From assembly GCA_963845185.1 (NCBI GenBank), contig CAWJRG010000009.1, positions 640,001 to 704,000 on the forward strand: 64,000 nucleotides of DNA, written 5' to 3'. Shown here piece after piece: positions 15,325 to 35,360 of the stretch (positions are counted from its first letter, which is position 1; every line of letters starts with the position of its first letter). A program made the translations under genes and the position numbers. Origin of the DNA: an uncultured bacterium (GTDB taxonomy: Bacteria > Oederibacteriota > PGYV01 > CAWJRG01). The notes beneath the pieces are model-generated. The model made no database searches. It had not been told where the DNA came from and worked only from the letters and a program-made list of their open reading frames with translations.

Positions 15325-15421
15325 AATTGTTTTTCGTTGAAAATTGAAAATTATTTGATTGCCGGATTTTGAGGTATGATAATGACTGGGAAAGATGATA
15401 AAACAACAAAAAGGACAGGTT

Positions 15422-16481: not shown

Positions 16482-16515
16482 ATCCCGGAATGTTTTTTTA
16501 ATTGAAAATTGGAAA

Positions 16516-16611
16516 CTTATAGCGTTTATTTTGTCGAGCCAAAGGCGATAACAAAATATTACGCTATCAAGTACCCGCTCAAGTCTTGAGCTTGCGAAAG
16601 ACAAGAGGTAT
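16516..16611 (-). repeat. Two-hairpin dispersed element, reverse-oriented copy
   Basis: Reverse complement reads ATACCTCTTGTC..GACTTGAGCGGGTAC TTGATAGCGTAATATTTTGT..ACAAAATAAACGCTATAAG. Confidence 0.85.
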
Positions 16612-16684
16612 TGGGAATTATTAAAAGCCAAAGGAAAGTCCTGAGCCCAGCCCTGAGCTTGCCGAAGGGGATGGATTTTGAGGT

Positions 16685-17401
16685 ATGAGGATTATGAATA
16701 AAAATAACGATAACAAGACAAAAAGAGCTGATACAAGAGCCGCTGAAGCATGCAACATCAGCGGGATAGTAAAAGGGAAATCAGGCGATTTTAAAAGCGC
16801 CATCAGGGATTTTAACAAAGCCATAAAATACGACCCCGGATACGCGCCTGCTTACATCAACCGCGGCAACGCGAAATATTATCTTGCTGACTTTAAAGGC
16901 GCCATTGAGGATTGCATGCAGGCAATAGAGCTTGAACCAAGATCCGCGGCTGCTTATAACAACCTCGGCAATGCCAGAGGCGCTTTAGGCGATTGCAAGG
17001 CGGCGATTAAGGATTATGATAAGGCAATGGAACTAAACCCAAAGGACGCGGAATTTTGCTATAACCGGGGCACTGTTAAATATGCTTCAGGTGATTTTAA
17101 AGGCGCTATCGGGGATTGCAACAGGGCAATAGAATTAAATCCGGAATACGCGGATGCTTATAACAACCGGGCCACAGCAAAAGACAGGCTGGGCGACTTC
17201 AAAGGAGCAATTGAGGATTATACCAAAACAATCGGGCTAAAGCCGGAACTGGCCCGTGCTTACAGCAACCGCGGGCTCGTTAAAAATAAACTGGGCGATA
17301 AGCGGGGCGCGATTGAGGATTTAAACATGGCTGTGGAGCTTGGGGATACCGGAGCATATGAAATAATCAAGCAAATTGAGGGGAAATTGGATGGGAAATG
17401 A
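16685..17401 (+). CDS. TPR-repeat protein
   Basis: About six 'AY.NRG..K..LGDFKGAIEDY.KAIEL.P' repeats. Confidence 0.9.
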   Translation: MRIMNKNNDNKTKRADTRAAEACNISGIVKGKSGDFKSAIRDFNKAIKYDPGYAPAYINRGNAKYYLADFKGAIEDCMQAIELEPRSAAAYNNLGNARGALGDCKAAIKDYDKAMELNPKDAEFCYNRGTVKYASGDFKGAIGDCNRAIELNPEYADAYNNRATAKDRLGDFKGAIEDYTKTIGLKPELARAYSNRGLVKNKLGDKRGAIEDLNMAVELGDTGAYEIIKQIEGKLDGK

Positions 17402-17524
17402 ATCCCGGATTGTTTTAATGAATGCGCCGGGAATAATGTGTTTGGTGTTTTGAATCCCCGATACCGAACAGAGAATTTATGTTAAAATAAGTATTGAAAA
17501 TGAAAAAGTGACAGGAGAAAAACA

Positions 17525-18565
17525 TTGAAATCATTTATTAAAAAAGGTAGAGAGTTGTCGATACCGGCAGGCGCGGTATGGCTCATGAACGACATTTCCG
17601 AATTCAAGGGCAAACAGGAGCTTTACGCAAAGCAATCCCCGCAGGTTTTAAAGGCATTGATCGAGCGGGCTTTGATAGAAAGCGCGGAGTCTTCGAACAG
17701 GATAGAGGGAATAACAGTCGAGCATTCGCGCCTTAAACCGCTTGTGCTTCAGAACGCGAAGCCTAAAGACCGGTCAGAAGAGGAAGTTGCGGGATACAGG
17801 AAGGCGCTTGATTACATCCATAAAAATCACGCGTCAATAGAAATAACCCCTGATGTCGTAAAAGAACTTCATGCCATGGCGCAGGCCGGGGCGTGGGACG
17901 CGGGAAAATGGAAGGAAAAAGACAACGACATTATTAAAAAATATCCGGACGGCAGGAGCGAAGTAATATTCAGGCCTGTTTCCGCAAAAGATACGCCGGA
18001 GGCGATGAACAACCTTTGCAGGGCTTACTCTCATTCCGTGGACCAGTTAAAATACCCGCCGCTTTATGCCATATCCTGTCTTATCCTTGATTTCCTGAGC
18101 ATACACCCTTTCAGGGACGGCAACGGCAGGGTGTCGCGACTTCTGACGCTTCTTGCGCTTTATAAATATGGTTTTAACGTCGGCAAATACATAAGCCTCG
18201 AGCGCATTACAGAGGAATCAAAAGAAACATATTATGAAACTTTAAGTAAAAGTTCAGAGGGCTGGCATGAAGCAAAGCATGATGTGGAGCCGTGGCTGTT
18301 TTACTTCCTGGGTACGGTTTTGGCTGCTTACAGGGAATTTGAGCAAAGAGCGGGGAATGTTAAGGCCGCGCGCGGAGCGAAGACAGAGATGATAATAACG
18401 GCCATAAAGGAGTTTCCCGGAAATTTTAAAATAAGCGACATAGAACGCGCCTGCCCGTCTGTGAGCAGGGATATGATACGCACAATTTTAAGAAAATTAC
18501 AGAAAAACAAAGTCATAAAAAGCATGGGAAAGGGCCAATCTGCAGAGTGGAAACGAATAGGGTAA
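17525..18565 (+). CDS. Fic-family protein with C-terminal HTH
   Basis: HPFRDGNGRVSR catalytic motif; SNRIEG inhibitory-type motif; TTG start. Confidence 0.9.
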   Translation: MKSFIKKGRELSIPAGAVWLMNDISEFKGKQELYAKQSPQVLKALIERALIESAESSNRIEGITVEHSRLKPLVLQNAKPKDRSEEEVAGYRKALDYIHKNHASIEITPDVVKELHAMAQAGAWDAGKWKEKDNDIIKKYPDGRSEVIFRPVSAKDTPEAMNNLCRAYSHSVDQLKYPPLYAISCLILDFLSIHPFRDGNGRVSRLLTLLALYKYGFNVGKYISLERITEESKETYYETLSKSSEGWHEAKHDVEPWLFYFLGTVLAAYREFEQRAGNVKAARGAKTEMIITAIKEFPGNFKISDIERACPSVSRDMIRTILRKLQKNKVIKSMGKGQSAEWKRIG

Positions 18566-18832
18566 TAACCGCGTGAATGGGGTAATGAATGGGGTAATAA
18601 CATAAACGTGGTAATAAGTAGCCTGAACATAGTAATAAACGTGGCAATAACAAATAAACGCCTTAAAAATAAAGCAAATAATAGCTAAATAGGTAATATG
18701 TGTTTAATTAGGTATTTAATTAGGTGTTTTGAATCCCAAATCCGAGTTGGGTCAATTAATTGAGATTGACAATTGAGAATTGAAAATTTTTTGAATGCTG
18801 GATTTTGAGGTATAATGATTTAGGAGGAAAAA

Positions 18833-19636
18833 ATGAAAAATTGGCTAGTATTGCATGATATGTCAGCTTTTTCAACTCATCCAGATTATATTGGGAAAGA
18901 AGAAAGACAAGAAGGGAAAATTTCTAAAATTAAAAAGGGAGATAACGTTATTTATTATTGTACAGGTGATATGATAATAACAGGAATTTACAAAGTTGTT
19001 TCGGATTTGCAACATTGGAAAAAAGACCCGTTCTGGGAAGGTGGCCATGTTGTATATAAAATAAAACCGATTATTGAAGCACATGGGCCACAATATATTG
19101 GTTTAAATAACATGTTAAAAGAGATTTCTCTTAATGCATTCCCAAAGGGGAAAGTAGAAGGTATAAAACTTAAAGGCAGGACTGCTATTCCAATATCAAA
19201 GCATGATTTAAAAGCAATAGAAATGTATATAAAAAATTACAAAGGAAAATCAGAAAAATTATTTGCCGGAGTATCAAATGATGAAGGACTTGGGGAACCG
19301 ATGGAACTTGAGGTTATGGGCTATGCACCTACTTCAGAGGCAGGTGTTATTGTGTTGTTTGCTCATTTTTTAAAAAAACTCGGTTTTGAAAGGATTGAGT
19401 TTATTAGGGCTGGATTTCCGGATGCCTGTGTTCTTAAAAAAGTTGGCGAAAAATTTGAAAGAAAATATATTGAATTCGAATTTCAGTCTTCCTCTTTTAG
19501 AATTCATATTAAAAATCCCAAGCATAAGAATATTAAATGCGATTACATAGTATGCTGGGAAAATGATTTTATTAATTGTCCTGTACCTGTTATTGAATTA
19601 AAAACCGAATTGCAAAAATTAAGGATATTGAAATGA
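18833..19636 (+). CDS. EVE/PUA-like domain fused to a PD-(D/E)XK-like nuclease (candidate modification-dependent restriction enzyme)
   Basis: N-terminal 'KIKKGDNVIYY...ITGIYKVVSD'; C-terminal 'FPDA...IEFE..S..F..H...CDYIVCWEND'; AT-rich. Confidence 0.65.
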   Translation: MKNWLVLHDMSAFSTHPDYIGKEERQEGKISKIKKGDNVIYYCTGDMIITGIYKVVSDLQHWKKDPFWEGGHVVYKIKPIIEAHGPQYIGLNNMLKEISLNAFPKGKVEGIKLKGRTAIPISKHDLKAIEMYIKNYKGKSEKLFAGVSNDEGLGEPMELEVMGYAPTSEAGVIVLFAHFLKKLGFERIEFIRAGFPDACVLKKVGEKFERKYIEFEFQSSSFRIHIKNPKHKNIKCDYIVCWENDFINCPVPVIELKTELQKLRILK

Positions 19637-19728
19637 TTATAAAAATTTTTAAAAATCATTTCCAAACGTAAAGGATTTGATGAAAATACATTAATTTGAT
19701 AGAATGTAAACAAAAGTAAAGGAGCTTT

Positions 19729-21630
19729 ATGGACGGGAAATCGGAAGACGTGCTAAAAGACAGGATAAAAGAGCTGAAAAAGCTGTTCCCTGAAGCGGTG
19801 ACAGAGGGGAAAGTAGACCTCGAGATGCTCAAGGCAACACTCGGCGGGGAGATAAATACAGACAACGAGCGGTATGTGCTGAACTGGGCCGGGAAAGCAG
19901 AGGCTTTCCGCGTACTGCAGACGCCCACCACGGCCACGCTCGCGCTTGCGGAAAAAGAATCAATAAATTTTAACAATACTGAAAATATTTTTATCGAGGG
20001 GGAAAATCTTGAAGTCTTAAAAATCCTGCAAAAATCATATTACGGCAAAATAAAGATGATATATATAGACCCGCCGTATAATACCGGAAGCGACAGCTTC
20101 ATATATCCCGATAAGTTCGCGGAAAGCAAGGATGAATATTTGAAAAGGATAGGGGAAAAAGACGAGGAAGGATACCTGCTGAAAGAGGGGCTTTTCAGGA
20201 AAAACAGCAAGGAAAACGGCCAGTTCCACAGCGTGTGGCTGTCCATGATGTACCCGCGCCTTTTCCTCGCCCGCAACCTGCTCCGCGACGACGGCGTGAT
20301 ATTCATTTCCATAGACGACAACGAAGTGCATAATTTAAGAATGATGATGAATGAGATTTTTGGTGAGGAGAATTTTGTTGCTGTTTTTCCATGGCGCAAA
20401 AGGACAGCAAAAAGTGATGTACCATTTGGCGTTTCACAGGATTTTGAATGGATATTAATGTATGGGAAAGGTGATTTTTGGGCTGGATATTCCCTAGAAC
20501 GCAAATATTACAAATCAAAAGATTATAAAGACGGATGGAGACTAGCCGATTTAACAACACAAAGAACAAAGGAAGAACGACCTAATTCATTTTTCACCAT
20601 GATAAATCCAAAAGATAAGAAGAAGTACGAAGCCAATCCAAACAGAGTTTGGGGAGTTACCAAAGAAACTTTCAAAGATTACTATGAAAAAGGAAAAATT
20701 GTATTCCCGGGAGATTATGATTTTTTAAATATTTCAATACCTGCATTTAGAGTTTTTGAAAGCGAAGATAAGGAAAAGAATCTTAAAAAATTCGGTTCGG
20801 AAGAAGCTTTCCGAACGGTATCAACTTTATTACCTCCGGATATTGGCAGGACAGAGGACGGCACTAAAGAAATTACCGAACTTTTTCAGAGTAAAGTATT
20901 CTCATTTCCTAAACCACAATCATTAATTAAGTATTTGATTAGCATAATACCTGAAAACGATTTTACGATTTTAGATTTTTTTGTCGGATCGGGAACAACC
21001 GCACATGCAACTTTTGAACTCAATAAAGAAGATGGCGGACAACGTAATTTTATTTGTATTCAATTACCGGAAAAGACAACAGAAGACACTGAAGCACTTA
21101 AAGAAGGATATAAAACTATCGCTGAAATCGGTAAAGAGCGCATACGCAGGGTAATAAAGAAAATAAAGGAAGAAAAGAAAAGCAATCCTGACCTTTTTTC
21201 CAAAGACAAGCCTGAACTTGACCTTGGATTTAAGGTATTCAAACTTAAAGAATCAAACTTTAAAGTCTGGCGGAGTGATGTGGTGGAGAATGAAAAGGAT
21301 TTAAACAGGCAGATGGAGATATTCCAGGAGCCTGTCAAACCAGGCGCGGAAATGAATAATATGATGTGGGAACTGCTGGTAAAAAACGGGTATGAACTGA
21401 CGACAAAGGTAGAAGAACGGGAACTCGCCAAATGCCCGTGTTTCGTCGTCGCCGAAGGCGAACTTATTGTCTGCCTCTCCAAACTCACTGAAACCGCAGT
21501 CAAAGAGATTTTGAAGCTGAAACCAAAGAAAGTCATCTGCCTTGACTCTCTCTTTGAGCGTAACGATAAGCTGAAAACCAACACCGCCCTGCAAATGAAA
21601 GACGCAGGGGTGGAGTTGAAGACGATATGA
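19729..21630 (+). CDS. mod: Type III restriction-modification methyltransferase
   Basis: IEGENLEVLK, IYIDPPYNTG, HS.WLSMMYPRL, FPKP, LDFFVGSGTTAHA, DLGFKVFKL. Confidence 0.93.
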   Translation: MDGKSEDVLKDRIKELKKLFPEAVTEGKVDLEMLKATLGGEINTDNERYVLNWAGKAEAFRVLQTPTTATLALAEKESINFNNTENIFIEGENLEVLKILQKSYYGKIKMIYIDPPYNTGSDSFIYPDKFAESKDEYLKRIGEKDEEGYLLKEGLFRKNSKENGQFHSVWLSMMYPRLFLARNLLRDDGVIFISIDDNEVHNLRMMMNEIFGEENFVAVFPWRKRTAKSDVPFGVSQDFEWILMYGKGDFWAGYSLERKYYKSKDYKDGWRLADLTTQRTKEERPNSFFTMINPKDKKKYEANPNRVWGVTKETFKDYYEKGKIVFPGDYDFLNISIPAFRVFESEDKEKNLKKFGSEEAFRTVSTLLPPDIGRTEDGTKEITELFQSKVFSFPKPQSLIKYLISIIPENDFTILDFFVGSGTTAHATFELNKEDGGQRNFICIQLPEKTTEDTEALKEGYKTIAEIGKERIRRVIKKIKEEKKSNPDLFSKDKPELDLGFKVFKLKESNFKVWRSDVVENEKDLNRQMEIFQEPVKPGAEMNNMMWELLVKNGYELTTKVEERELAKCPCFVVAEGELIVCLSKLTETAVKEILKLKPKKVICLDSLFERNDKLKTNTALQMKDAGVELKTI

Positions 21631-22442
21631 AGGAGTTAATAAATATAGTAAATACGAAATATAAAGAATTTGATATAAATAAATTAGATTATAATAAACC
21701 GTATTTTATTGTTTCTCCAAAAGACGATCTGGAAGGAATAATTTTGGAGAATGAAACAATTATGTTAAAATATAAAGAAATGTTTTCGTTTAAAATGCCA
21801 ACTGGTAATATTTGTAATTTAAGACAATGGATAATTTTATATAACAAAGATATAAACGATATAACATATTTTAGAAATTATTTCTATGATAACAATTGTA
21901 ATCCATATGCAATAGCTATGCTGTTTAAATATTTGCGTTATAATGTTAAAGAATTAACAAATTTAACGCAATTTCCACCATTGAATTTTAAAAAAACTAA
22001 AGAAGAACAATCAAATGCAATGGATCTTGTTATACAAAAGGCTGAACCTTCGGATTTAATATTTGTATATGATAGAAAAAGTGGAATTTCTAAGTATATT
22101 AGAAAAATAGATAGATGTATGTGGTCGCATTGCGGGGGAATCAATATGAATAAAGAAATTATTGAAATGACAACTGCCGGAATTAGAAGGGGTAGTTTTG
22201 AAGAATATAGAAATGAAAATATAGATTTAGGATTGTATAGATTGAAACAACAAATTTCATTTGAGAGTAAGGAAAAGATGCATGATTTTTCAGAAGATAA
22301 ATTAAGGAAACAAACAAGATATAACTGGAAGGGTGTTGTTAAACTTTATTTGAAAAAGAAATTTAAAATTCCTATTGACGCAGGTCCGTCCCCGGCGGAT
22401 ATAATATACGGTAATAAATTGCAATTAATTGCATATGCATAA
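21627..22442 (+). CDS. Permuted papain-like (YiiX/YaeF, NlpC/P60-related) domain protein
   Basis: 'PSDLIF...ISKYIR..D...WSHCG', 'RYNW', 'SPADII'; no CSE-type catalytic Cys motif seen; ATGA overlap with mod. Confidence 0.55.
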   Translation: MKELINIVNTKYKEFDINKLDYNKPYFIVSPKDDLEGIILENETIMLKYKEMFSFKMPTGNICNLRQWIILYNKDINDITYFRNYFYDNNCNPYAIAMLFKYLRYNVKELTNLTQFPPLNFKKTKEEQSNAMDLVIQKAEPSDLIFVYDRKSGISKYIRKIDRCMWSHCGGINMNKEIIEMTTAGIRRGSFEEYRNENIDLGLYRLKQQISFESKEKMHDFSEDKLRKQTRYNWKGVVKLYLKKKFKIPIDAGPSPADIIYGNKLQLIAYA

Positions 22443-22499
22443 TAGTTATATATCCATATCGCTCTTTGAACAAATCAATGAAGAGTGAGGTTGCGGACA

Positions 22500-23745
22500 A
22501 TGATTGAAAGAGAAGATTTAAAGGATATTAAAAATACAGTTGCTCATTTAAATGATTTAGCTAAAGTTTTTCACAAATTTAATGTAGAAGATTGGTCAAT
22601 ATTATGGTATGCCCGTAATAAACGCGCTGGTGAAAGTCTTGAAAATCTATACTTTGTAAAAGATAAGGATTTCATTAATGCTGTTGAAAGTGTTTATCGT
22701 GAAGGAAGACAAATAGCCGTAGATTTATCATATGATTTACCGCTCATTGATCAAATCGAAGTTTTCCCTAAGATATTCTAATTATTTAGATCATATGAAT
22801 AATTATTTTGACTTAGTTGATAAAATTGCACCCGAATTTTTAAAATGGGAACAAATAATTAATGCGAAAAGGGATTATGAAGTAGATTATGGCGCGATTG
22901 ACGATATGATAAAACTTTTTAAAGCACAGTTAAATTTAATAAAGGGTTTAAAAAATGATTTTGAAAATATTAAGAACTCAGAAAGATTTAAAATTGAAAA
23001 CGATTCAAAAATAATTGAAAATGTACAAAATACAAATCAAAATAATAAATCTTTAATTTTTATAAGTTATAATGTAATTGATAAAGTAATTGCGGGTGAA
23101 ATATTTGACTTTTTGAATACTTTTTTTGAAGTTTTTTTAGCTCATGAAAAAATTAAATCCGGCGTTGATTGGCAAGAGGAGATAATACTTAATTTACAAA
23201 AAGCAGATATATTTATGCCTATTATAACTAAATCATTCAAACAGTCGGATTGGACTGATCAAGAATGCGGAATTGCATATTTATTAGCAAATTTAAAAAA
23301 CACAAAAATACTTCCGCTTAATAAACCACAATCACATAAAAAAAATCTTCCATATGGATTTATAAGTAAATTTCAATCTTTTCCTTTTACTGATATGAAA
23401 AAACAAGAAGAGCAGATTGAATTTTTTGCAAAATTATTAGAATTAATCAATAAAAACGAAAAAAAACGTTTATTTGATTTGCTTGTTTTAAAACTTACAG
23501 GATGCAATACAAAAAACGACTGTACAAAATATACAAGAATGCTATTACACTTTGATATAACAGAATATAGACTTAATAAGATTTTTGAAGCTTTTAGCAT
23601 GGATATTAGTAAAAAATATTCTAAAAGTATAATAAAAATATTTGAGGATTTTATTAAAAACAAACATATCGAATTTTTAGATAAATTTAAAAAATTCAAA
23701 GCTTCTATTTTTAAACAAATTAGCATAAAAAATGGTAAAACATGA
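22500..23745 (+). CDS. TIR-domain protein, probably one gene split by a frameshift near 22770 (ORFs 22485-22781 and 22732-23745)
   Basis: IFISY..D...A..I, VFLAHEKIKSGVDWQEEI...L, SDWTDQECG (catalytic-type Glu); very AT-rich. Confidence 0.75.
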
Positions 23746-23786
23746 AACTACATTTTGATTCCAATCAGGCATATCAATTAGAGGCG
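23742..23786 (+). repeat. Truncated copy 1 of the res 5' end (MKLHFDSNQAYQLEA)
   Basis: ATGAAACTACATTTTGATTCCAATCAGGCATATCAATTAGAGGCG, compare 27679-27723. Confidence 0.9.
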
Positions 23787-23956
23787 GCTGGAAAAGACCG
23801 TGGTGAGTGCGACGTGGGACGTGGAACGGAAAATATAAACATTCGGAATTCGGGATTTGGAATTTGGTATTCGGGATTTGGGATTTGAAAGACACATTCA
23901 GCGTTTGGTATTCAAGAATTTGAATCCGGAATTCCAAATGCAGAATCGGAGTTACA

Positions 23957-25399
23957 ATGACAAAAAAGGAATTAATCAATAAAATCCAGGACATAGAGTG
24001 GGAGGATTTTGAAGTAAAAGAGGCAGCGGGAGGTTTGCCTAAATCCTCATGGGAGACTGTGAGCGCTTTTGCGAATACCGCCGGCGGGTGGATTGTATTC
24101 GGAGTTTCCGGCATGGGCTCAAAATACGCGATTACCGGAGTGGATAAGCCCGGGAAACTGGAGCAGGACTTTTTAAACACCCTTCGCGGGGATAAATTTA
24201 ACAGGAAAATCAGCGTTAAGTGCAAAAAATATAAAATTGAGGATAAAACCGTACTGGGATTTTACGTACCTTCGGCGCAGGGCAAAGACAAGCCGGTCTA
24301 TTTTAATTCCAAGGCAAATACTTTCATAAGGACAGGAAGCGGCGACCAGCGGGCGACAAGCGAAGAGATAGACGCCATGTACAGGAACTCTTCTTTCGAC
24401 AAAAAAGACGAGCAGCCGACGCGCTTTACGATAAAAAGCCTTGATGCCCGTACGATAGAACGCTTCAGGACATATCTGAAAAACATAAATCCCGGGCACA
24501 GATATAACAGCTTAAAAAATGAGGAATTTCTTGAAAAGCTGAGGGCGGTTTCACGGGGCAGGGTGACAATAGGCGGGCTTTTGTTTTTTGGGAAAGAAGA
24601 AAGCATAAGCGAATATGCGCCGGATTTCAGGATAGATTATCTGGAGATTTCCGGGACATCATACGGGGACGCGCCGGAACGCTACAGCTACAGGCTTCCT
24701 GAGGAAATCAATATTTTTAATTATTATTTCGCCGTAATGGACAGGCTGATGAGAAAAATAGATATTCCTTTCAAACTCAAAGGAATGGCAAGGGACGAAA
24801 ACCCGCCGCAGTTGACCGCGATAAGGGAAGCGCTTGTAAACCTGCTGATGCACAGCGATTATTTCAGCGGCGCAAAGCCGAGGATAAGGGTATTCACCGA
24901 CAGGATAGAGTTCTTTAATCCAGGCTCTTTGCCGAAAGAGATAAAATACATTTTAAAGGAAGATTTTTCGCTTCCGAGAAACCCGACCATAGCCAGGTCG
25001 TTCAGGATGGTACAGCTTGCCGAAAGCATAGGCTCGGGATTTTATAAAATGATAAACGGCTGGAAATCCTACTACAAAATAAAACCTGAAATAACAGGCG
25101 ATTTTGATTATTATAAAATCGTATTTAAATTTGAATCCGCGGCTGATGATGCTGTAAATGTCCCTGTAAATGTCCCTGTAAATGCCCCTGTAAATGCCCC
25201 TGTAAATGCCCCTGTAAAAAGATTGGAAATGATAGTAGAACAAATGAAAGTTAACGACAGGATAACATTTGTGCAATTAGCAAAGTTTCTTAAGGTAGAT
25301 GTGACTACAATAAGGCGAAATGTCTCAAAATTGAAAAATGAGGGGCGAATAAGGAGAATAGGGCCGGATAAGAACGGAAGATGGGAAGTGCTTAAATGA
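23957..25399 (+). CDS. AlbA_2/Schlafen-like domain, RecG-C-like ATPase region and C-terminal HTH
   Basis: E...FEVKEA, WETVSAFANT.GG.IVFGV, AIREALVN.L.H.DY, RIEF.NPG, RNP.IA; 12-bp repeat before the HTH. Confidence 0.85.
   Translation: MTKKELINKIQDIEWEDFEVKEAAGGLPKSSWETVSAFANTAGGWIVFGVSGMGSKYAITGVDKPGKLEQDFLNTLRGDKFNRKISVKCKKYKIEDKTVLGFYVPSAQGKDKPVYFNSKANTFIRTGSGDQRATSEEIDAMYRNSSFDKKDEQPTRFTIKSLDARTIERFRTYLKNINPGHRYNSLKNEEFLEKLRAVSRGRVTIGGLLFFGKEESISEYAPDFRIDYLEISGTSYGDAPERYSYRLPEEINIFNYYFAVMDRLMRKIDIPFKLKGMARDENPPQLTAIREALVNLLMHSDYFSGAKPRIRVFTDRIEFFNPGSLPKEIKYILKEDFSLPRNPTIARSFRMVQLAESIGSGFYKMINGWKSYYKIKPEITGDFDYYKIVFKFESAADDAVNVPVNVPVNAPVNAPVNAPVKRLEMIVEQMKVNDRITFVQLAKFLKVDVTTIRRNVSKLKNEGRIRRIGPDKNGRWEVLK
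25152..25218 (+). repeat. In-frame 12-bp tandem repeat (CTGTAAATGYCC, 5.5 copies)
   Basis: Encodes VNVP/VNAP repeats. Confidence 0.9.
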
Positions 25400-25440
25400 A
25401 ATTACATTTTGATGCCAATCAGGCATATCAATTAGAGGCG
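25396..25440 (+). repeat. Truncated copy 2 of the res 5' end (MKLHFDANQAYQLEA)
   Basis: ATGAAATTACATTTTGATGCCAATCAGGCATATCAATTAGAGGCG. Confidence 0.9.
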
Positions 25441-25634
25441 GCTAGAAAAGCAGGGGTAAGGGGGAAGGGTGGAACAGATAAAAGCGGGGGAAGTGGTAAG
25501 GGGCCCTTCGACAGGCTCAGGATGAAGAAAAGCAGTGGTAAGTGGGGATGGGAAGAGAAAGAAGTTTCTGGTTTCAAGTTTCTGGGTATTGAAAAGATAT
25601 TTGCTGTGACATAAATTACAGATAAAATAATAGA

Positions 25635-25792
25635 TACCCCACGGCTAAAGCCGTGGTACTGTAGTCCTACGACTTCGTCGTCGGACTCTTAACAAAGGGC
25701 TAACGCCCTTTGAAACCTCTCAGCAAGGTTGGATGTTTGATTTTAGTCTGCGTTCATTCAACCACGGGCAAGCCCGTGGTCTTCTGAACGCA
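25635..25792. mobile_element. Non-autonomous IS200/IS605-like palindromic element
   Basis: Terminal hairpins CCACGGCTAAAGCCGTGG and ACCACGGGCAAGCCCGTGGT resembling IS200/IS605 ends; no transposase. Confidence 0.6.
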
Positions 25793-25819
25793 TTTCTGAT
25801 AAACTAACGGAGTAAAACA

Positions 25820-26344
25820 ATGGAAAAACAACAGTTTGAAAAGCTCGATAAGCTTGCGGACAGGATATGCGATAAATTCGCGGAGCTGGATAAAAAGGGC
25901 GCGTTTTCCGGAATAGAAGAGGAAATGAATAAAATTTGCTCTGAACTGCCGGAGAAATACGACATCACATTCCGGTTTACGCTTGGTATCTTCGACGAGG
26001 AAAAAGAAAATGAGATTCAGCTTCTTGAAACAGGCATAAGCTGTTTCGGGCAAAATACCGCGTACCGCCTGCAGGGCACGGGGTCAACGCCCCATTCATA
26101 CCTCGTAAACGGCAAAATATCAAAAATTCCGCATGATTATTGCCCTGCATGCTGGGGCCGGTGGGATTTTAAGCTGAAAAATAAAACATGCCCTGGGTGC
26201 GGGGCAGTGATGGGCAAGGAAGTAAAACTCATGCTCGACTCGGACGTCTGCCCGTCATGCGAAGACGGCAAAATCACGCGGAACAACCCGAAATGCGGCA
26301 AGTGCGGGTTTGAAGTGGACGGAACTACGGTATACTGGGGATGA
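25820..26344 (+). CDS. Hypothetical protein with four CxxC pairs (double zinc ribbon)
   Basis: CPAC, CPGC, CPSC, CGKC; RBS GGAG. Confidence 0.75.
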   Translation: MEKQQFEKLDKLADRICDKFAELDKKGAFSGIEEEMNKICSELPEKYDITFRFTLGIFDEEKENEIQLLETGISCFGQNTAYRLQGTGSTPHSYLVNGKISKIPHDYCPACWGRWDFKLKNKTCPGCGAVMGKEVKLMLDSDVCPSCEDGKITRNNPKCGKCGFEVDGTTVYWG

Positions 26345-26611
26345 CGCCGCGTAGCGGCGAGAGATTTGAACAGTAGAAAGGTGAATTGAAGACAGTGGTA
26401 AGTGATAGAGATAAGGGGGAAGTGGTAAGGGGTATGGGGCAGAAGAGCAAGTTTCTGGGGTTTCTGGTTTCTAAATGAGGAAAAATGAGCGAAAGAATCC
26501 TGCGACAGGCTCAGGACTAACAAGTAAAAGCGTGCGGCAGAAAGAACAGGAAAAGGCCGATTCAGTTATCCGGAATTTCCGGAATACTGATGTTTATGAG
26601 GAGCGTGAAAC

Positions 26612-27682
26612 ATGAATGAAAAAAGCGGGCTGCCCGCGAAAACAGAGTTTCTTTTATACACGACAGAGGACGGGAAAACAAGAATCCAGACCCGCATGCA
26701 GAATGAGACTGTGTGGCTGACACAGCAGATGATGGCGGATTTATTCCGGACTACAAAGCAGAATATCAGTTTGCATATTCAAAATATATTAAAAGAGGGC
26801 GAATTGGGCGAGGGGGCAACTGTCAAGGATTTCTTGACAGTTCAAAATGAGGGCGGAAGGGATATCAAAAGAAACATAGAATATTATAATCTCGACATGA
26901 TTATATCCGTCGGATACCGCGTAAAAAGCGTCATAGCCACGCAATTCCGCATATGGGCCACGCAAAGGCTGAAAGAGTATATCATAAAGGGATTTACCAT
27001 GGACGACGACAAACTGAAGCAGGCAGGCGGCGGGAACTATTTCGAAGAACTGCTCGCCCGCATACGGGATATAAGGTCTTCGGAAAAAATATTCTGGCGC
27101 AAGGTGCTGGATATATACGCCACAAGCATTGACTATAACCCGGATATTGATTTATCAAAGCAGTTTTTCGCGACAATACAGAATAAAATGCACTGGGCGG
27201 CCCACGGGCGGACCGCAGCTGAAGTTATCTACGGCAGGGCCGACGCCGCAAAACAAAACATGGGGCTGACAAACTGGGTAGGCGCGGGCATACGAAAGGA
27301 AGAGACTGAAATCGCCAAAAATTACCTTAACGAAAAAGAACTGGATATGCTGAACAGGATAGTGACGGCTTATCTTGAGTTTGCCGAGGTCCAGGCCTTG
27401 AACCGCAGGCCCATGACAATGAAAGACTGGATAGCCAAGCTGGATGATTTTTTAAAGCTTTCAGGCAGGGATATACTGACGCACGCAGGGACAATAAGCC
27501 ATGATAAAGCCCTGAAAAAAGCCCATGAGGAGTACGAAAAATACAGGGCGGCGCGGATGGACGCGCCGTCTGAGGCTGAAAAGGATTTTCTGGAAGCGGA
27601 AAAAGAAATAAAAAGAATTGAGAAAACGGCAAAGAATAAAAAAATAAAAAATTCAAAAAAGAAGAACAAAGGGAAAAGATGA
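26612..27682 (+). CDS. RhuM-family protein
   Basis: ETVWLTQ..MA.LF, YNLDMIISVGYRVKS..ATQFRIWAT, YFEELLARIRDIRSSEK. Confidence 0.9.
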   Translation: MNEKSGLPAKTEFLLYTTEDGKTRIQTRMQNETVWLTQQMMADLFRTTKQNISLHIQNILKEGELGEGATVKDFLTVQNEGGRDIKRNIEYYNLDMIISVGYRVKSVIATQFRIWATQRLKEYIIKGFTMDDDKLKQAGGGNYFEELLARIRDIRSSEKIFWRKVLDIYATSIDYNPDIDLSKQFFATIQNKMHWAAHGRTAAEVIYGRADAAKQNMGLTNWVGAGIRKEETEIAKNYLNEKELDMLNRIVTAYLEFAEVQALNRRPMTMKDWIAKLDDFLKLSGRDILTHAGTISHDKALKKAHEEYEKYRAARMDAPSEAEKDFLEAEKEIKRIEKTAKNKKIKNSKKKNKGKR

Positions 27683-30315
27683 AATTACATTTTGACTCCA
27701 ACCAGCAGTATCAATTAGAGGCGATGAAAGCTATTACAGATATTTTCGAAGGCCAGCCGATGAACTCCAGCGATTTCGAGTTCTCGGCGGACGTGGGCGG
27801 GTCGCTGCTGTACAACGAATTCGGCGTGGCGAATAAGCTCGTCCTGGACGACAGGCAAATAAAGAAAAACCTCAGCGTGGTCCAAAAACGCAACGGGATA
27901 CGGGACATACCGGAATTCGCGGGCATGAACTTTTCCGTGGAAATGGAAACAGGCACGGGCAAAACATACGTTTATTTGCGCACGATATACGAGATGAACA
28001 AGCTTTACGGCTTCAAGAAATTCATAATCGTGGTGCCGGGCATAGCCATACGCGAAGGAGTATTGAAAAACCTCGAAATCACACACGAACATTTCCAGGA
28101 GCTGTACTCAAAGACGCCGTGCAAATACTTTGTATATGACTCCTCGAATGTCTCGAACCTGCGCAGTTTCGCGCTGAACAACTCAATCCAGATACTCGTC
28201 ATAAACATAGACTCGTTCGCGAAGGACGAAAACGTCATAAACAAAGTCAATGACAGGCTGACAGGCAAAAAGCCGGTAGAATTCATACGCGGGGTAAACC
28301 CGATAGTCATAGTTGACGAGCCGCAAAACATGGAGACCGAGATAAGGAAGCGCGCCATAGCGAACCTGAACCCGCTGTGTACGCTGCGGTACTCGGCTAC
28401 ACACACAAACCTTTACAACCCTGTTTACAGCCTGAACCCTGTGAAGGCGTATGACATGGGGCTGGTAAAGCAGATAGAAGTGGACTCGGTATATACCGAG
28501 AACGACTTTAACCGCGCCTATGTGGCGCTCAAATCGCTATCATCCACAAAAACACGCACAAGCGCGAAGCTGGAAATAGACATAGAAACAGAAAACGGGA
28601 CAAAGCGAAAGCTGGTGACTGTGAAAGTGGGCGATAACCTGCATGACCTGTCCGGGAAAAGGGAAATATACAGCGATAATTTCACTGTGGAGCGCATTGA
28701 CCTGAAAAAAGAAATTGTAGGGTTCGCAAACGGCATAGAGATAGCTAAAGGCGAGGCAAAGGGCGGGCTGACTGACGAGGTAATGAAAGTGCAGATAGAA
28801 AAGACAATACAGGAGCATTTGGAAAAAGAGAAAAGATACAGGGACAAGGGGCTCAAAGTCCTGTCCCTGTTTTTCATAGACAGGGTAGCGAACTACAGGA
28901 CGCCTGATGGGCAAAAAGGCAAAATAGCGCTGTGGTTCGAGGAATCATATAAAAAACTCATAAAGAAACCCGAATATAAAAGCCTGCTGCCGTATAAGGT
29001 GGAGCAGATGCATAACGGATATTTTGCGCAGGATAAAAAAGGTAACTTTAAAGATTCTTCGGAAGGCAGGGATACCCAGGACGATGATAAGGCATATCAG
29101 TTAATAATGCAAAAAAAAGAACAACTTCTTGATATAAACGAGCCCCTGCGTTTTATATTCAGCCACTCTGCCCTGCGCGAGGGATGGGACAACCCGAACG
29201 TGTTCCAGATATGCGCGCTCAGGGAAATATCCACACAAAGGCAAAGGCGGCAGACAATAGGCAGGGGCATGCGGCTCGCGGTGGACCAGCAGGGAATGAG
29301 GAACCAGGAAAGGGACATAAACAGGCTCACTGTCATAGCGGGCGAGAGTTTTGAGGAGTTTGCAGACGGCCTGCAAAAGGAAATTGAAAGCGAGTGCGGG
29401 GTAAAGTTCGAAAACAGGATAAAGGACAGAAATAAAAGAATATCAGTGAAGCTGAAGAAAAACTACGCGCTCGATAAAAATTTCATGGACATGTGGGACA
29501 AAATAAAACAAAAAACAACTTACAGGGTGGAGTTTGACACTGAAAAACTTGTTGAAGAGGGCGTAAAGACCATGAAGGAGATGCAGACAGTAAGTAGGCC
29601 TGAGGTTAGGTCTGAAAAAAATTATATGTTAATGGATAAAAAAGAAGGAATCCATGGCGATTTATTAGGTGAGGAAGTGCATCATATGGACACGAGCGCA
29701 ATGGATATCCCGGATATATACGCATTCATAGAGGATAAGACATGGATTACACGGAGCAGTATTTACAGGATTTTAAACGAGTCGGGAAGGTCGGCTGATA
29801 TACTGAAAAACCCGCAGCTTTTTCTCGACATGGCCGCTAAGCAGATAAAAGACGCGCTGAACAGGCTCATGGTGGACGGGATAAAGTACGAGAAAATAGG
29901 CGGGGCAGAGTATGCGATGATGTTGTTTAAGGATAGCGAAATAGAGTCCTATATAGATAACCTCTACAAAGTTAAAAATGAGGATAAGACAATAACCGAT
30001 TACGTGGAGGCCATATCCGGGCCCGAACTGCAATTCGCAAAGGACTGCGACAGCAGGGAGGATGTGGCGTTTTACATCAAACTGCCGCGCTGGTTCAGGA
30101 TACAGACGCCAATAGGCGACTATAACCCTGACTGGGCGCTGGTTTTCAAGGGCGAAAAAAAGCTGTACTTTGTGGCAGAGACAAAGTCAAGCCTTGACCC
30201 GAAAGAACGCAGGCAGGATGAGAACGACAAGATAAAATGCGGCGAGGCGCACTTCGCCGAGTTCCCGGACGTGAAGTATAAGGTAGTGAGGAACGTGGGG
30301 GAAGTGAAGGAATAA
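27679..30315 (+). CDS. res: Type III restriction endonuclease/helicase
   Basis: EMETGTGKTYVYL, IVDEPQ, LRYSATH, ALREGWDNPNVFQIC, YNPDWA...VAETK. Confidence 0.93.
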   Translation: MKLHFDSNQQYQLEAMKAITDIFEGQPMNSSDFEFSADVGGSLLYNEFGVANKLVLDDRQIKKNLSVVQKRNGIRDIPEFAGMNFSVEMETGTGKTYVYLRTIYEMNKLYGFKKFIIVVPGIAIREGVLKNLEITHEHFQELYSKTPCKYFVYDSSNVSNLRSFALNNSIQILVINIDSFAKDENVINKVNDRLTGKKPVEFIRGVNPIVIVDEPQNMETEIRKRAIANLNPLCTLRYSATHTNLYNPVYSLNPVKAYDMGLVKQIEVDSVYTENDFNRAYVALKSLSSTKTRTSAKLEIDIETENGTKRKLVTVKVGDNLHDLSGKREIYSDNFTVERIDLKKEIVGFANGIEIAKGEAKGGLTDEVMKVQIEKTIQEHLEKEKRYRDKGLKVLSLFFIDRVANYRTPDGQKGKIALWFEESYKKLIKKPEYKSLLPYKVEQMHNGYFAQDKKGNFKDSSEGRDTQDDDKAYQLIMQKKEQLLDINEPLRFIFSHSALREGWDNPNVFQICALREISTQRQRRQTIGRGMRLAVDQQGMRNQERDINRLTVIAGESFEEFADGLQKEIESECGVKFENRIKDRNKRISVKLKKNYALDKNFMDMWDKIKQKTTYRVEFDTEKLVEEGVKTMKEMQTVSRPEVRSEKNYMLMDKKEGIHGDLLGEEVHHMDTSAMDIPDIYAFIEDKTWITRSSIYRILNESGRSADILKNPQLFLDMAAKQIKDALNRLMVDGIKYEKIGGAEYAMMLFKDSEIESYIDNLYKVKNEDKTITDYVEAISGPELQFAKDCDSREDVAFYIKLPRWFRIQTPIGDYNPDWALVFKGEKKLYFVAETKSSLDPKERRQDENDKIKCGEAHFAEFPDVKYKVVRNVGEVKE

Positions 30316-30497
30316 TGAGGAGCAGGCCGCGCTCATGGGGGAAGGGATGGCGACTGGATAAGGCAATTATCAATTAAGAATTGTCAATTTTCAATAACAT
30401 GAATACCAAAGCAAATGCCGAATAGTCGGATTTATAATTAAAGCATAGATGTAAAAGTCTGCCGGCTTTTGTGCCGGTGAAAACGAAAGGGATAACA

Positions 30498-31283
30498 ATG
30501 TACAGGAAAATTTTTTGTTTTTTTGCAGTTGTTTTTTCAGTTTTACCGGCAGTGGCTTTTGCCGCAGGCTCTGACACGGCCCCGGACAGCGGGCAGGCAG
30601 TAACATCCGCGGTTCCTGCCGTGCAGGCGGCTCCTGTTCAGCAGTCCGCGCCTGTGTCTGACCAGTCATTTTACGCGGACAAGTTTTGCATTGCGTATAA
30701 CGGAGGACTGGATTTCAGGTGGTGGTTTGGAAAAAACTGGGGGCTTGAGATACCTATATCCGGCTCCACGACCGGCTCGCTTACCAAAGCCGACATCAGC
30801 GAGGGCGCACAGAATTCTTTCTACTGGAACGCTGTGACAGGGCTGAATTTTATTTTCCCTTTGCAGAACATATACGGGATTAACTTTAACTTTATCCCGG
30901 GTATTTACCTGAGCGGCAGCGAAAACCTTTACAGGAATGCTCCGAGTTACTGGAATTCCAACAATATATTTACTTATTATGAGCAGGATAGCTACAATTA
31001 CAGTTTTTCAGGAGGAATATCGCTGGGGCTGGAAGCGGAGGTTTTCCCGCATAATATATGCGACAAAATACCGCAGAACATCAGTTTCGGCAGCAAGTTT
31101 GCATTCAACTGCCTTTACAATTACGCTGAGTCGTGGAATCACTATCCGGGAATGAACCAGCAAATCCAGCAGTCGAACCCGTATTCGTCATTCACAGCTT
31201 TCCAGCGCAACGAAGGAATAATCACAAACTTCAGCATAGGCGGCAGTACCTGGAGCGCGCTGTATGTGAGATATTACTTCTGA
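30498..31283 (+). CDS. Secreted, probable outer-membrane beta-barrel protein
   Basis: Signal peptide ending AFA; aromatic-rich strands; C-terminal VRYYF. Confidence 0.7.
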   Translation: MYRKIFCFFAVVFSVLPAVAFAAGSDTAPDSGQAVTSAVPAVQAAPVQQSAPVSDQSFYADKFCIAYNGGLDFRWWFGKNWGLEIPISGSTTGSLTKADISEGAQNSFYWNAVTGLNFIFPLQNIYGINFNFIPGIYLSGSENLYRNAPSYWNSNNIFTYYEQDSYNYSFSGGISLGLEAEVFPHNICDKIPQNISFGSKFAFNCLYNYAESWNHYPGMNQQIQQSNPYSSFTAFQRNEGIITNFSIGGSTWSALYVRYYF

Positions 31284-31320
31284 TCAAGAGTTGCTTTAGC
31301 CGGCAGTCAACAGGCGGCTG

Positions 31321-31450
31321 GGAGGACTTCGGAGGGTCGGAAGGGCAGAAGAGCGGAAGGTTAGAGGATCGGAGGGGCAGAGGGTCGGAAGAGCAGAGGA
31401 ACGGAAGAGCGGAGGAACGGAAGAGCGGAGGAACGGAAGAGCGGAAGAAT
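31321..31450 (+). repeat. Degenerate purine-rich 8-mer tandem repeat (GGAAGAGC/GGAGGAAC)
   Basis: Visible 8-nt periodicity; similar tract at about 35509-35580. Confidence 0.75.
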
Positions 31451-31474
31451 GGCAAAGGCGTAAGGCAATTATCA

Positions 31475-31570
31475 ATACCTCTTGTCTTGCGCAAGCGCAA
31501 GACTTGAGCGGGTACTTTATAGCGTAATATTTTGTCTGCGCCTTCGGCTTGACAAAATAAACGCTATAAG
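31475..31570 (+). repeat. Two-hairpin dispersed element
   Basis: ATACCTCTTGTC-TTGCGCAAGCGCAA-GACTTGAGCGGGTAC; TATAGCGT-AA-TATTTTGTC..GACAAAATA-A-ACGCTATA. Confidence 0.88.
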
Positions 31571-31691
31571 TTTTCAATTTTCAATGAAAGAAGTAAAAGA
31601 ATTATCTATCCTCAGATTCAAGGCCATAATGCAACTTGATTTTATCATAACAGATGTTATAATTATGACGAGATTTGAAAGGGACGCTCAA

Positions 31692-31982
31692 ATGACTCAG
31701 TTACAGAAACAAACAGTAAAGAAACTGCTCTGGGACTATGATTTTACAGAAGAAGAATTCATGGATATCCTGAACGGGAAAACCGAACTGGGCAGCTTCA
31801 ACAGAAAATGGGCCGTGAGAAGGGCTGTTGAAGGGCTGAATTATTACGACCTTCTCGAGGTTGTAGGGCTCAAGACGCTTGCCGAGGTCTGGCCGGAGAT
31901 AAGGCAGACTTTCCGCATAAAAAACATTAAAGACGGAATTGATTATGTTTTACGAAAATACACTGTATCCGCTTCAAGATAA
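31692..31982 (+). CDS. Small protein upstream of an AbiEii-like gene (probable antitoxin partner)
   Basis: 'LLWDY' motif; overlaps the downstream nucleotidyltransferase gene. Confidence 0.6.
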   Translation: MTQLQKQTVKKLLWDYDFTEEEFMDILNGKTELGSFNRKWAVRRAVEGLNYYDLLEVVGLKTLAEVWPEIRQTFRIKNIKDGIDYVLRKYTVSASR

Positions 31983-32590
31983 ACTCCTCGGCACTATAGA
32001 CGGGCTGGGTCTGGCTTTTTACCTCACGGGCGGCACTGCGCTCGGCCGTTTCCATTTCAACCACAGGTACTCGGATGACCTTGATTTTTTCGTCAACAAC
32101 AACCCAAAATTTCAGGATGACGTCAATCTTATAATCCGGTCCATTGCGGGGCAGGGCCTGAAATACGCAGTTGAGAAAAAGGATGAAACTTTTTGCAGGC
32201 TTACTATTGAAAATATTCTCAAGGTGGATTTTGTGAATGCGTGCCTTCTTATTACGGCGAGGTTGAAATCAGGGCTGACGGGCCGTTTTCCCGCATTGAT
32301 AATCCCATGAATATATTGGCAAATAAAATTACCGCGTTCAGCGACAGGGAAGAGGCAAAGGACATATCCGATATCTGGATAATCGCAAAAAAATGCCTGT
32401 TAACTGGAAATCTGTTTTCACAGCGGCTGACAGCAAAGCTGCAGGGTTAAACGCCCCGCTGATAGCCAAGAAAATAGAGGAGTTTGACTTAAAGAGCCTG
32501 GCAAAAGTCAAATGGATAAAACAGCCGCCGGACGAAGAGTTTAAAAAAGATATTAAAAGGATTGCTGATGATATTTTGGGAATACGGTAA
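31945..32590 (+). pseudogene. AbiEii/AbiGii-family nucleotidyltransferase with two frameshifts (about 32240, 32392)
   Basis: YLTGGTAL..F...HRYSDDLDFF; KVDFVN-(D)VP; ILANKITA..R.EAKD..D in successive frames. Confidence 0.8.
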
Positions 32591-32648
32591 GATACTGATT
32601 AAAAAAAGAGATTTGATCCCTTTCCGCGAAGATCCCCGCTAATATATC

Positions 32649-33575
32649 ATGATGGTAAACTACAGTACAACTTCCATGAAAAAAGAGATGAGAGCATCGA
32701 CAAAAATAGTGCTTATAACCGGCATAATATACTTCATTGTTTTCCTTTTTGTGCCATTGTGCCCGTTTATATCGGCGGCGGCAGGCAATTTATCCGCGCG
32801 GATAATCCCGTTTTTTGCGGACAAATTGCCGCATAAAGCAGGGGCTGCGAGTATGCAGGAACTCGCCCAGGCGTCAGCCGATGCCGAGGTAAAAAAATGG
32901 GACACTCTGTTTGACCAGATACTAAAGGGGGACTACACCGGCAACACCGGCCCTGCGCCATTGGCCGGCAGTCAGGCAAAAGCCGCAGGGGAAACCGGCC
33001 TGTTGCAGGCTGTCACGCAGGGAAGGCTCCTGGCAGTATTTCCGATGGGGCTTGAATGCGACATTGGCAAGAAAGAATGCGGCATAATATTCGGCGCGGA
33101 TTATGAAAGGGCCTCGATGAAAATGACGGCGTTCGTTTCCTTCATGGGCATAAAGCCGGTGTTCACAGGGCTCAGGAGCGAGCCTGTATACGGCAAAATA
33201 GGGGACCTTGTCAAAATCCAGTTCGTGGGCATGCCTGTGTGGCACTATGCCTGCCTTTTTTTTAGCCTTGTCCTGATTTATTTCACGTTTTCCACGCTCA
33301 TGCTCTGCACGCAGAGCGGTGTGAAGCTGAAAATTTTCTGGCTCATATTCATCGCGTTCGGGGTATTTTCGCTGGCTACAGTCTGGGACAGGGCGGCGCC
33401 TGAAGTACTGTTTAGTTTTAAGCGCATTATTTTTTCATCCGCATCCTGGGTAAAATACCCTTTATACTCGCCGGCTGTGCTGACAATATCCCTGCCGCTC
33501 GGCGCGATAGTTTTCAGGGTGTTTTTGATGCTCAGGAGCCGGAAATCCAGGGACGGGTGGACAGAAAATGGGTAA
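32649..33575 (+). CDS. Hypothetical membrane protein
   Basis: N-terminal and three C-terminal hydrophobic segments; start uncertain. Confidence 0.65.
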   Translation: MMVNYSTTSMKKEMRASTKIVLITGIIYFIVFLFVPLCPFISAAAGNLSARIIPFFADKLPHKAGAASMQELAQASADAEVKKWDTLFDQILKGDYTGNTGPAPLAGSQAKAAGETGLLQAVTQGRLLAVFPMGLECDIGKKECGIIFGADYERASMKMTAFVSFMGIKPVFTGLRSEPVYGKIGDLVKIQFVGMPVWHYACLFFSLVLIYFTFSTLMLCTQSGVKLKIFWLIFIAFGVFSLATVWDRAAPEVLFSFKRIIFSSASWVKYPLYSPAVLTISLPLGAIVFRVFLMLRSRKSRDGWTENG

Positions 33576-33606
33576 GGGAGAAGTGGGAGGAAATGATGGG
33601 AAGAAG

Positions 33607-34312: not shown

Positions 34313-34337
34313 TGAGGGTACGCCCAAAAAAAATTAT

Positions 34338-34366
34338 TTGACAAGCAAACAAGATTATGTTAACAT
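34338..34366 (+). promoter_or_regulatory. Sigma70-type promoter of the HTH/Doc operon
   Basis: TTGACA-17 nt-TAACAT with TG extension. Confidence 0.65.
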
Positions 34367-34423
34367 TGTAATTAGGATTAACGATTGTTAACTAAGAACG
34401 CAAAGTTAACAAAACTTATAAAT

Positions 34424-34625
34424 TACCGCTTGCCAACGGCCTAACGGCCTTAGGCTTGAGCGGGTACATGGTCTCGTAATGTTTTACCGGCACCTTCGGC
34501 TTGGCAAAACAAACGCATAATATCAAGCACCGCTTGCCGGGATAAAACCCCGGCTGGAGCGGGTACATGCTTTCGTAATACTTTTCCTGCGCCTGTTGAC
34601 GGTTTGGAAAAGTAAACGAAAGCAA
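34424..34625 (+). repeat. Two tandem copies of the two-hairpin element (34424-34520, 34528-34625)
   Basis: ACCGCTTGCC..GGCT(T/G)GAGCGGGTAC twice; second copy ends at the RBS GGGAGG. Confidence 0.85.
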
Positions 34626-34637
34626 GGGAGGCAATTT

Positions 34638-35327: not shown

Positions 35328-35360
35328 TTGCCGGGTTTCAATAAAAAATAATAATTAAAC

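Follow-up and report, generated by a model that had tools for sequence, protein, structure and literature searches.

How do unrelated genes come to lie between the two subunit genes of a restriction-modification (R-M) operon, and why does the beginning of one of these subunit genes occur there three times over? The question is raised by a Type III R-M locus of an uncultured bacterium of the Oederibacteriota (GenBank assembly GCA_963845185.1, contig CAWJRG010000009.1), of which we analysed a stretch of 64,000 nucleotides (nt; positions 640,001 to 704,000, forward strand), hereafter called the window and numbered from its first letter. The methyltransferase gene mod and the restriction gene res lie on the same strand and are not adjacent: they are 6048 nt apart (21630 to 27679), with six open reading frames (ORFs) and two truncated copies of the 5' end of res (stubs) between them (Table 1). 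Our comparison with related loci shows that the mod-res junction is a general, variable cargo slot of a widespread clade of Type III operons, and that the same slot and the same type of scar recur in related operons of many phyla. The cargo is probably exchanged by recombination anchored in the conserved 3' end of mod and 5' end of res, the stubs being left behind by occasional additive events.

An earlier note on this DNA had described the first 45 nt of res as occurring at 23742, 25396 and 27679, each copy overlapping as ATGA the stop codon of the preceding gene, and the two dead copies as sharing the continuation GCT(G/A)GAAAAG. All of this is borne out. The three copies appear in a direct readout of the sites and in alignment, and the ORF ends confirm that the TGA of each ATGA is the stop of the TIR, AlbA_2 and RhuM gene, respectively. 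Across the whole genome (3,496,445 bases), a degenerate 45-nt pattern (3 mismatches allowed) has three forward matches and no reverse match, while the reversed pattern, used as a control, has none in either direction. The copies form one repeat family, in which each stub agrees with the resident res at 39 of the 45 res-derived positions; over 55 nt, stub 2 is 95% identical to stub 1, against 73% for res and stub 1 over the same 55 nt in the repeat search. Both stubs quit res after ...GAGGCG (codon 15), and nine of the ten non-res bases that follow are identical between them. Because the break and these ten bases are common to both, the most plausible reading is that the stubs are copies of a single junction and not two independent breaks at codon 15. 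The ten bases do not belong to a res allele as far as can be seen from 80 Res N-termini of the related loci described below, none of which they fit. Agreement of the stubs with res genes from other phyla extends to 37-38 of the 45 positions, nearly as many as with the resident res, so that the donor of the stub allele cannot be named.

Repeats at cassette borders are classic points of mis-joining, and this genome was assembled in 11 contigs, which leads us to ask whether three strain haplotypes with one block each were artificially joined through a shared res start. We regard this as very improbable. A mis-join through the res start would run on into res and not into the spacer that precedes another cargo gene, and the stub-spacer junctions must therefore exist in real molecules. 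The longest exact shared runs are 29 nt between the stubs and 17 nt between stub and res, the contig is 1.0 Mb long, and equivalent stubs are found in a dozen independent assemblies.

The operon that holds these repeats looks intact, judging from its predicted proteins. Family matches cover both Type III subunits, namely the Mod methyltransferase and a Res protein with a superfamily 2 (SF2) helicase/ATPase and a C-terminal PD-(D/E)xK endonuclease, and both matches extend over the full length, in agreement with the earlier note's statement that the R-M system had not been destroyed. The res ORF is uninterrupted across 878 amino acids (aa). Catalytic motifs of the usual type can be seen in both translations, DPPY and FxGxG in Mod and Walker A, DExx and PD...ExK in Res. 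Since no intergenic terminator-like site was found on the + strand between the two genes, co-transcription from mod to res is plausible. The note had also remarked on the absence of a recombinase, and indeed no integrase, transposase or other recombinase family was detected among the 59 window ORFs of at least 90 aa (Pfam, E<=1e-6); the sole nucleic-acid-rearranging enzyme in the window is a reverse transcriptase (60392-61804), 30 kb away.

The locus was compared with its relatives by a scan of one genome per species, which yielded 590 confirmed Res relatives; the 80 top-scoring loci, with flanks of up to 10 kb, were retained. These 80 of 590, whose Res is 55-65% identical, belong to many phyla of bacteria and also include some archaea. 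Upstream of res, 63 of the 80 have a mod C-terminus in the same orientation, and these 63 are the base for all gap counts; among the other 17, 15 had less than 3.7 kb of upstream DNA, and two (L014 and L043) had 10 kb and still no mod. Mod and res are separated by at most 60 nt in 8 of the 63 loci and by 60-500 nt in two; the other 53 have gaps that exceed 500 nt (maximum 6957), which supports the earlier claim that the junction is a site of gene accretion. The gap ORFs of at least 70 aa are almost all on the operon strand (118 of 126). The final cargo ORF shares an NTGA overlap with the start of res in 22 of the 53 occupied loci, and in another 15 it stops no more than 30 nt away.

Comparison of insert content among related mod-res loci, which the earlier note had proposed, showed that the inserts vary and are unrelated from locus to locus. 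Pfam was run on 112 of the 126 gap ORFs. The families are of defence type and change between loci. AlbA_2/HATPase_c_4 accounts for 19 ORFs in 18 loci, often with a partner of about 870 aa that has an ABC-ATPase-like domain; the others include GmrSD, Fic, DarT-Macro, an Eco57I-like methylase, Bro-N, AAA+ with S8 peptidase, TIR, SIR2 with HerA, OLD-TOPRIM with UvrD, Dcm-Vsr with GHKL ATPases, ThiF-JAB, DUF1016/YhcG and DUF1828, and many slot ORFs have no family. With so many unrelated cargo families found between mod and res, the junction is therefore a general cargo slot: genes are nested between the core genes of a defence system, and they differ among related loci.

One cargo recurs as a pair of genes of about 3.8 kb in total, a protein of about 870 aa with weak AAA_21/SMC_N similarity followed by an AlbA_2/HATPase_c_4 protein of about 390 aa (L011, L013, L018, L035, L038, L042, L052, L053, L060, L065 and L083). 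It looks like a conserved two-gene defence module, and its recurrence accounts for a cluster of gap sizes near 3.7-4.4 kb.

Truncated ends of mod and res occur in other slots as well. In six frames, 1.28 Mb of DNA (79 loci together with 20 kb of the window) was searched with profiles of the first 28 Res residues and the last 50 Mod residues. On the + strand, 13 Res matches of at least 9.5 bits lie beyond the real gene ends, and 11 of them are inside a slot, although slots make up 13% of the DNA searched; the remaining two are in L032, 1 kb upstream of res, where mod is off the contig. The best minus-strand scores in these scans were 8.8 and 9.1 bits. The Mod profile gave five further matches, all inside slots; a sixth (L064, 10.6 bits) was dropped, as it lies inside the real mod gene. 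In a second, independent set of 71 loci (0.7 Mb) we found one more res stub, in the Type III slot of L120, and a single minus-strand chance match of 9.7 bits. Relics of a conserved flanking gene thus stand beside displaced modules here and elsewhere: res stubs in the window and in 11 other loci (L015, L017, L020, L026/L028, L029, L032, L035, L039, L082, L120), and mod 3' stubs in four (L015, L038 with two, L057, L063). The arrangement in L038 mirrors that of the window, with three cargo blocks and two mod 3' stubs of 45 and 23 codons between them. The stub of L032 (2203-2301) is a scar with a second lesion, in which an insertion of about 24 nt follows codon 13, the sequence is res-like again over codons ~14-23, and the break comes after that.

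The earlier note had placed the recombination at a fixed point in res and had asked whether the break is always at codon 15. It is not: in the other stub-bearing loci it falls near codon 6, 8, 11, 13, 14, 18, 23, 24-25 or beyond 40, its place changing in nearly every case, and the sequence beyond the break is unrelated between loci. Of the claim that successive recombination stacked the blocks, the accretion site and the relic junctions are supported and the fixed point in res is not.

The variable breaks also bear on an integron-like, site-specific cassette system, in which the res 5' end and the ten bases behind it would form an attachment site for a recombinase encoded elsewhere, and each block would be a cassette closing with its own res start. 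The arrangement matches serial integration at one site; the stubs share their break, nearly all of the following bases and most of their 55 nt; and a motif, GAAAAG..GTGGTRAGTG, follows both stubs, occurs once more in spacer S2, and has only these three matches in the genome, all at this locus. We nevertheless hold such a system to be highly unlikely, as neither the break codon nor the following sequence is kept in other stub-bearing loci and the junction is absent elsewhere in the collections scanned. Furthermore, block 1 starts at the mod stop without the ten-base motif, the internal spacer of block 3 has no stub, the 55-mers fold as DNA no better than shuffled sequences (z 0.33, -0.87, 1.50), and the 59 window ORFs include no integrase, transposase or resolvase family.

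The preferred reading, recombination through the gene ends, requires that these ends be similar enough to pair. Averaged over pairs of 64 loci, nucleotide identity is 0.59-0.80 for nt 1-90 of res and 0.62-0.80 for the final 90 nt of mod; directly outside these stretches it is 0.27-0.32. The slot is framed by two conserved arms with sharp borders, and its content is unrelated from locus to locus. L029 and L035 are about 90% identical from the first base of a shared stub through a DUF1016_N gene into res, whereas upstream of the stub they carry different, unrelated cargo. The homology begins at the first base of the stub, which is therefore a recombination border, meaning that a stub can act as the right-hand arm during exchange of the cargo upstream of it.

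The earlier note had regarded the stubs as relics of former cargo-res junctions, a view supported by the NTGA overlaps in 22 of the 53 occupied loci and by one locus of the same phylum, L104. Here an AlbA_2 orthologue, 57% identical over its full length to the one in the window, runs into an intact res start with the kind of overlap seen at stub 2, so that stub 2 is what remains of a junction still alive elsewhere. Only three of 56 AlbA_2 relatives have both mod and res alongside (L097, L104, L120); others adjoin Type I components (L098, L102, L103, L113, L152) or housekeeping genes (70 of 125 flanking ORFs scanned). Outside Type III loci, no res stub was found beside AlbA_2 in the 71-locus second set, the stub of L120 being inside a Type III slot.

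The make-up of the spacers raises the question of another, purely local origin. Two of the three spacers contain a native G-rich repeat (25451-25614 and 26400-26530), with the core GGGGGAAGTGGTAAGGGG, often followed by GTTTCTGGTTTC and CGACAGGCTCAGG motifs; its 18-mer has 11 genome matches at up to 2 mismatches, of which 2 are in the slot and nine elsewhere. Stub and spacer could have been duplicated together by slippage or unequal sister exchange among such dispersed repeats, with cargo later inserted between the copies, in which case the second stub would tell us nothing of any former cargo-res junction. The similarity of spacers S2 and S3 is significant (0 of 300 shuffles attain the score), S2 has an internal repeat of about 82 nt, and the stubs are closer to each other than either is to res, all of which would fit. 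However, both stubs overlap exactly, as ATGA, with the stops of two different upstream genes, and a duplicated spacer would not recreate such an overlap; the AlbA_2-res junction is found intact in L104; and the order cargo, stub, cargo recurs in genomes that do not have these G-rich repeats. A local origin thus appears distinctly unlikely.

In the mechanism that we favour, DNA from another operon of the clade would recombine through both arms, and the cargo would be swapped. Occasionally only one side would be homologous, and the other would join illegitimately, inside or just beyond the arm (homology-facilitated illegitimate recombination), or alternatively would pair with a stub already in the slot. 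With homology on one side only, new cargo would be added, the old kept, and a truncated arm left: a res 5' stub after the displaced cargo, or a mod 3' stub before it. As for the order of events in the window, we infer that three blocks were stacked, and that a single junction (res codon 15 plus native G-rich spacer) was duplicated as a block was added beside it. This duplication is needed because illegitimate joins made independently of each other would not share both the break and nine of the ten bases after it.

Several points weigh against this mechanism. The duplication is an extra, assumed step that the window demands; the joints vary between loci, yet the two in the window are identical, and beyond the shared ten bases the similarity of the spacers after stub 1 and stub 2 is not significant (35 of 300 shuffles attain the score). 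The conservation of the arms, which the model needs, could reflect protein constraint and does not prove their use in recombination. The lowest-scoring stubs (12.6-16 bits) are near the level where chance matches start (9.7 bits in 0.7 Mb), and the loci are partly non-independent, since L026 and L028 are near-duplicates, L029 and L035 are related, and the 80 are the best-scoring of 590. Donor, recipient and intermediate alleles were not found in our searches: none of 60 relatives searched is closer than order level, those of the same order sharing single genes of the locus at most; metagenome contigs have no match to a 24-nt stub core or to a degenerate junction pattern, and viral contigs none to the stub core. 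A 22-nt junction pattern had one match in the genome contig collection, a chance hit in a ribosomal protein L16 gene.

A bolder version, which we think unlikely, would have the stubs as working parts too, that is, a cassette system free of any recombinase in which each block would retain its own res start or mod end. Through homologous recombination, cargo arriving from any of the clade's operons could then be taken up at any of the stubs, block order could be shuffled, and deletions between stub and res, predicted at 1654, 2283 and 3937 bp, would regenerate an intact res. The Type III operon would in that case be a self-repairing, portable scaffold on which defence islands are assembled and reshuffled across phyla.

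The slot of the window holds three co-oriented blocks: ORFs without a family plus a TIR gene; an AlbA_2 (Schlafen-like) gene; and a zinc-ribbon gene plus RhuM. From the family matches (ThsB-like TIR, PDC-S05, AlbA_2), the cargo may serve in phage defence. Block 1 has a GC content of 24-30% against about 45% in its surroundings, as expected of a recent import. Its first gene has a weak, sub-threshold Atlas lead (0.82) to permuted papain-like/NlpC-P60 clusters, and its TIR protein has only two relatives, weak and partial, in the genome contig collection. In the AlbA_2 gene, a 12-nt tandem repeat in 6 copies (25140-25230) encodes a PVNV/PVNA linker before the winged-helix domain, and the L104 orthologue has another repetitive linker in the same place; the repeat could be a slippage-prone hinge of variable length. 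The hairpin-rich element upstream of the zinc-ribbon gene has two further genome copies of 76-80% identity (G000 C4:3-182 and C10:86700-86865), both adjoining housekeeping genes, and may be a small RNA or an element resembling repetitive extragenic palindromes or miniature inverted-repeat transposable elements (REP/MITE-like). Rfam has no match for it; the single Rfam match in 19000-31000, XIST_A_REPEAT (E 0.66), was rejected as not real.

Table 1. Features of the mod-res slot and of the surrounding island, in window coordinates.
Feature	Coordinates	Strand	Description
HepT-like	10447-10782		
DUF1016/YhcG	15395-16162		truncated
Fic	17525-18565		
Low-GC ORF	18833-19636		no assigned family; just before mod
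mod	19729-21630	+	Type III methyltransferase, 633 aa; left slot border; Pfam N6_N4_Mtase 1e-32; PADLOC MTase_III 1e-192 (residues 3-629)
Block 1 gene a	21627-22442	+	271 aa; start overlaps mod stop as ATGA; no Pfam or PADLOC family
Block 1 gene b	22485-22781	+	98 aa; no family; may not be a genuine gene
Block 1 gene c	22732-23745	+	TIR-domain protein, 337 aa; Pfam TIR_2 3e-14; PADLOC ThsB-like 3e-9
res 5' stub 1	23742-23796	+	45 nt (res codons 1-15) and 10 shared non-res bases; opens a junk ORF of <50 aa
Spacer S1	23797-23956		short GGGATTTGG-type repeats, found elsewhere in the genome too
Block 2	23957-25399	+	AlbA_2 (Schlafen-like), HATPase_c_4 and winged-helix protein, 480 aa; Pfam SLFN_AlbA_2 4e-17
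res 5' stub 2	25396-25450	+	45 nt and the same 10 bases; opens a junk ORF of 72 aa (25396-25614)
Spacer S2	25451-25819		G-rich native repeat to ~25614, then 180-nt hairpin-rich element (25615-25819)
Block 3 gene a	25820-26344	+	double-zinc-ribbon protein, 174 aa; Pfam DZR_2 1e-5, under the curated cut-off
Spacer S3	26345-26611		second copy of the G-rich native repeat; no res stub
Block 3 gene b	26612-27682	+	RhuM-family protein, 356 aa; Pfam Virulence_RhuM 2e-114; PADLOC PDC-S05 2e-147; stop overlaps live res start
res	27679-30315	+	Type III restriction subunit, 878 aa; right slot border; Pfam ResIII 8e-14, RE_endonuc 6e-34 (residues 770-872); PADLOC REase_III 3e-290
AbiEii fragment	31939-32310		
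HTH_17 and Fic fragment	34596-35327		
ParE	36206-36478		
AbiEii/AbiEi	43189-44441		

The operon itself sits within a wider island of defence and toxin-antitoxin genes at about 10-44 kb of the window (10447-19636 and 30471-44441), several families of which are slot occupants in other genomes. Outside the window, in a second island of the same genome, a decayed mod relic (G000 C9:327283-327412; L155 7283-7412) retains the last ~40 codons, with stops and no res, at 75% nucleotide identity to the mod of the window; around it are a ParB_N protein, two DUF1016/YhcG genes, DUF4145, a CoiA-like nuclease and an IS110 transposase. Near the far end of the window (60392-62853), the reverse transcriptase (RVT_1 1e-40, 470 aa) is directly followed by a protein of the FGE-sulfatase fold (2.5e-32), a pairing typical of diversity-generating retroelements.

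The nesting of defence genes within defence systems is a known pattern for which the papers we could search give no mechanism, and this locus and its relatives offer a probable one, in which two short conserved gene ends frame the slot and truncated copies would log each additive event. The mechanism makes testable predictions, namely RecA-dependent deletions between stubs and replacement of cargo by donor DNA that carries both arms. For the search of new defence genes, the mod-res interval of this clade, occupied in 53 of 63 loci, is a large and easily searched reservoir of anti-phage candidates, many without a family; annotation and defence-finding tools that assume adjacency of mod and res may miss or split such systems.

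In classical Type III R-M systems, mod and res are adjacent. Like EcoP1I and EcoP15I, the present operon encodes Mod and then Res on a single strand, and their Pfam and PADLOC families agree; it departs from them in that mod and res are within 500 nt of each other in only 10 of the 63 clade loci. Like the cassettes of an integron array, its cargo consists of co-oriented, promoter-poor genes, each followed by a repeat, beside a fixed chromosomal point; unlike integrons, it has no integrase among the window ORFs, its repeat is a fragment of a coding gene without an attC-like hairpin, and its breaks vary between loci.

Arrays of orphan toxin-immunity genes are also found at CDI (contact-dependent inhibition) and Rhs loci. 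A close parallel is with the orphan immunity gene arrays of Vibrio type VI secretion systems (T6SS), which are attributed to homology-facilitated illegitimate recombination (PMC9711863). As described there, incoming modules displace older ones, which are left as an array, one crossover falling within a conserved part of a gene and the other being illegitimate, and relics of the conserved gene mark the module borders, as they do here. In that account the modules are effector-immunity pairs downstream of a secretion or toxin gene, whereas ours are anti-phage-type genes inside an R-M operon with both flanking genes intact, and the relics derive from the 5' end of the gene downstream or from the 3' end of the one upstream.

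Embedding within Type I loci has been described for PrrC, nested in the EcoprrI locus (PMC12707154), and for DarTG2, located between hsdS and hsdR at a site that the authors call a potential recombination hotspot (PMC12255303). A systematic 'guilt-by-embedding' study lists, in its available text, candidate genes within Hma, BREX, DISARM and Type I R-M systems; that text uses 'Type III' once, for a retron-type system, and does not mention 'recombination' (10.1101/2024.01.29.577857). The present locus shares with those systems the unrelated, co-oriented defence-type genes between restriction core genes and the variation of cargo among related loci, and its RhuM protein matches the PADLOC candidate family PDC-S05. 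We found no paper on a Type III mod-res slot or on truncated arms as footprints, in a search that left most subscription journals and bioRxiv supplements outside. The locus differs from the guilt-by-embedding systems in its Type III host, in a slot whose limits, the stop of mod and the start of res, are exact to the base, and in the truncated copies of the flanking genes that record the addition of cargo. Embedding as such is already known; what is added here is a Type III host slot with readable recombination scars.

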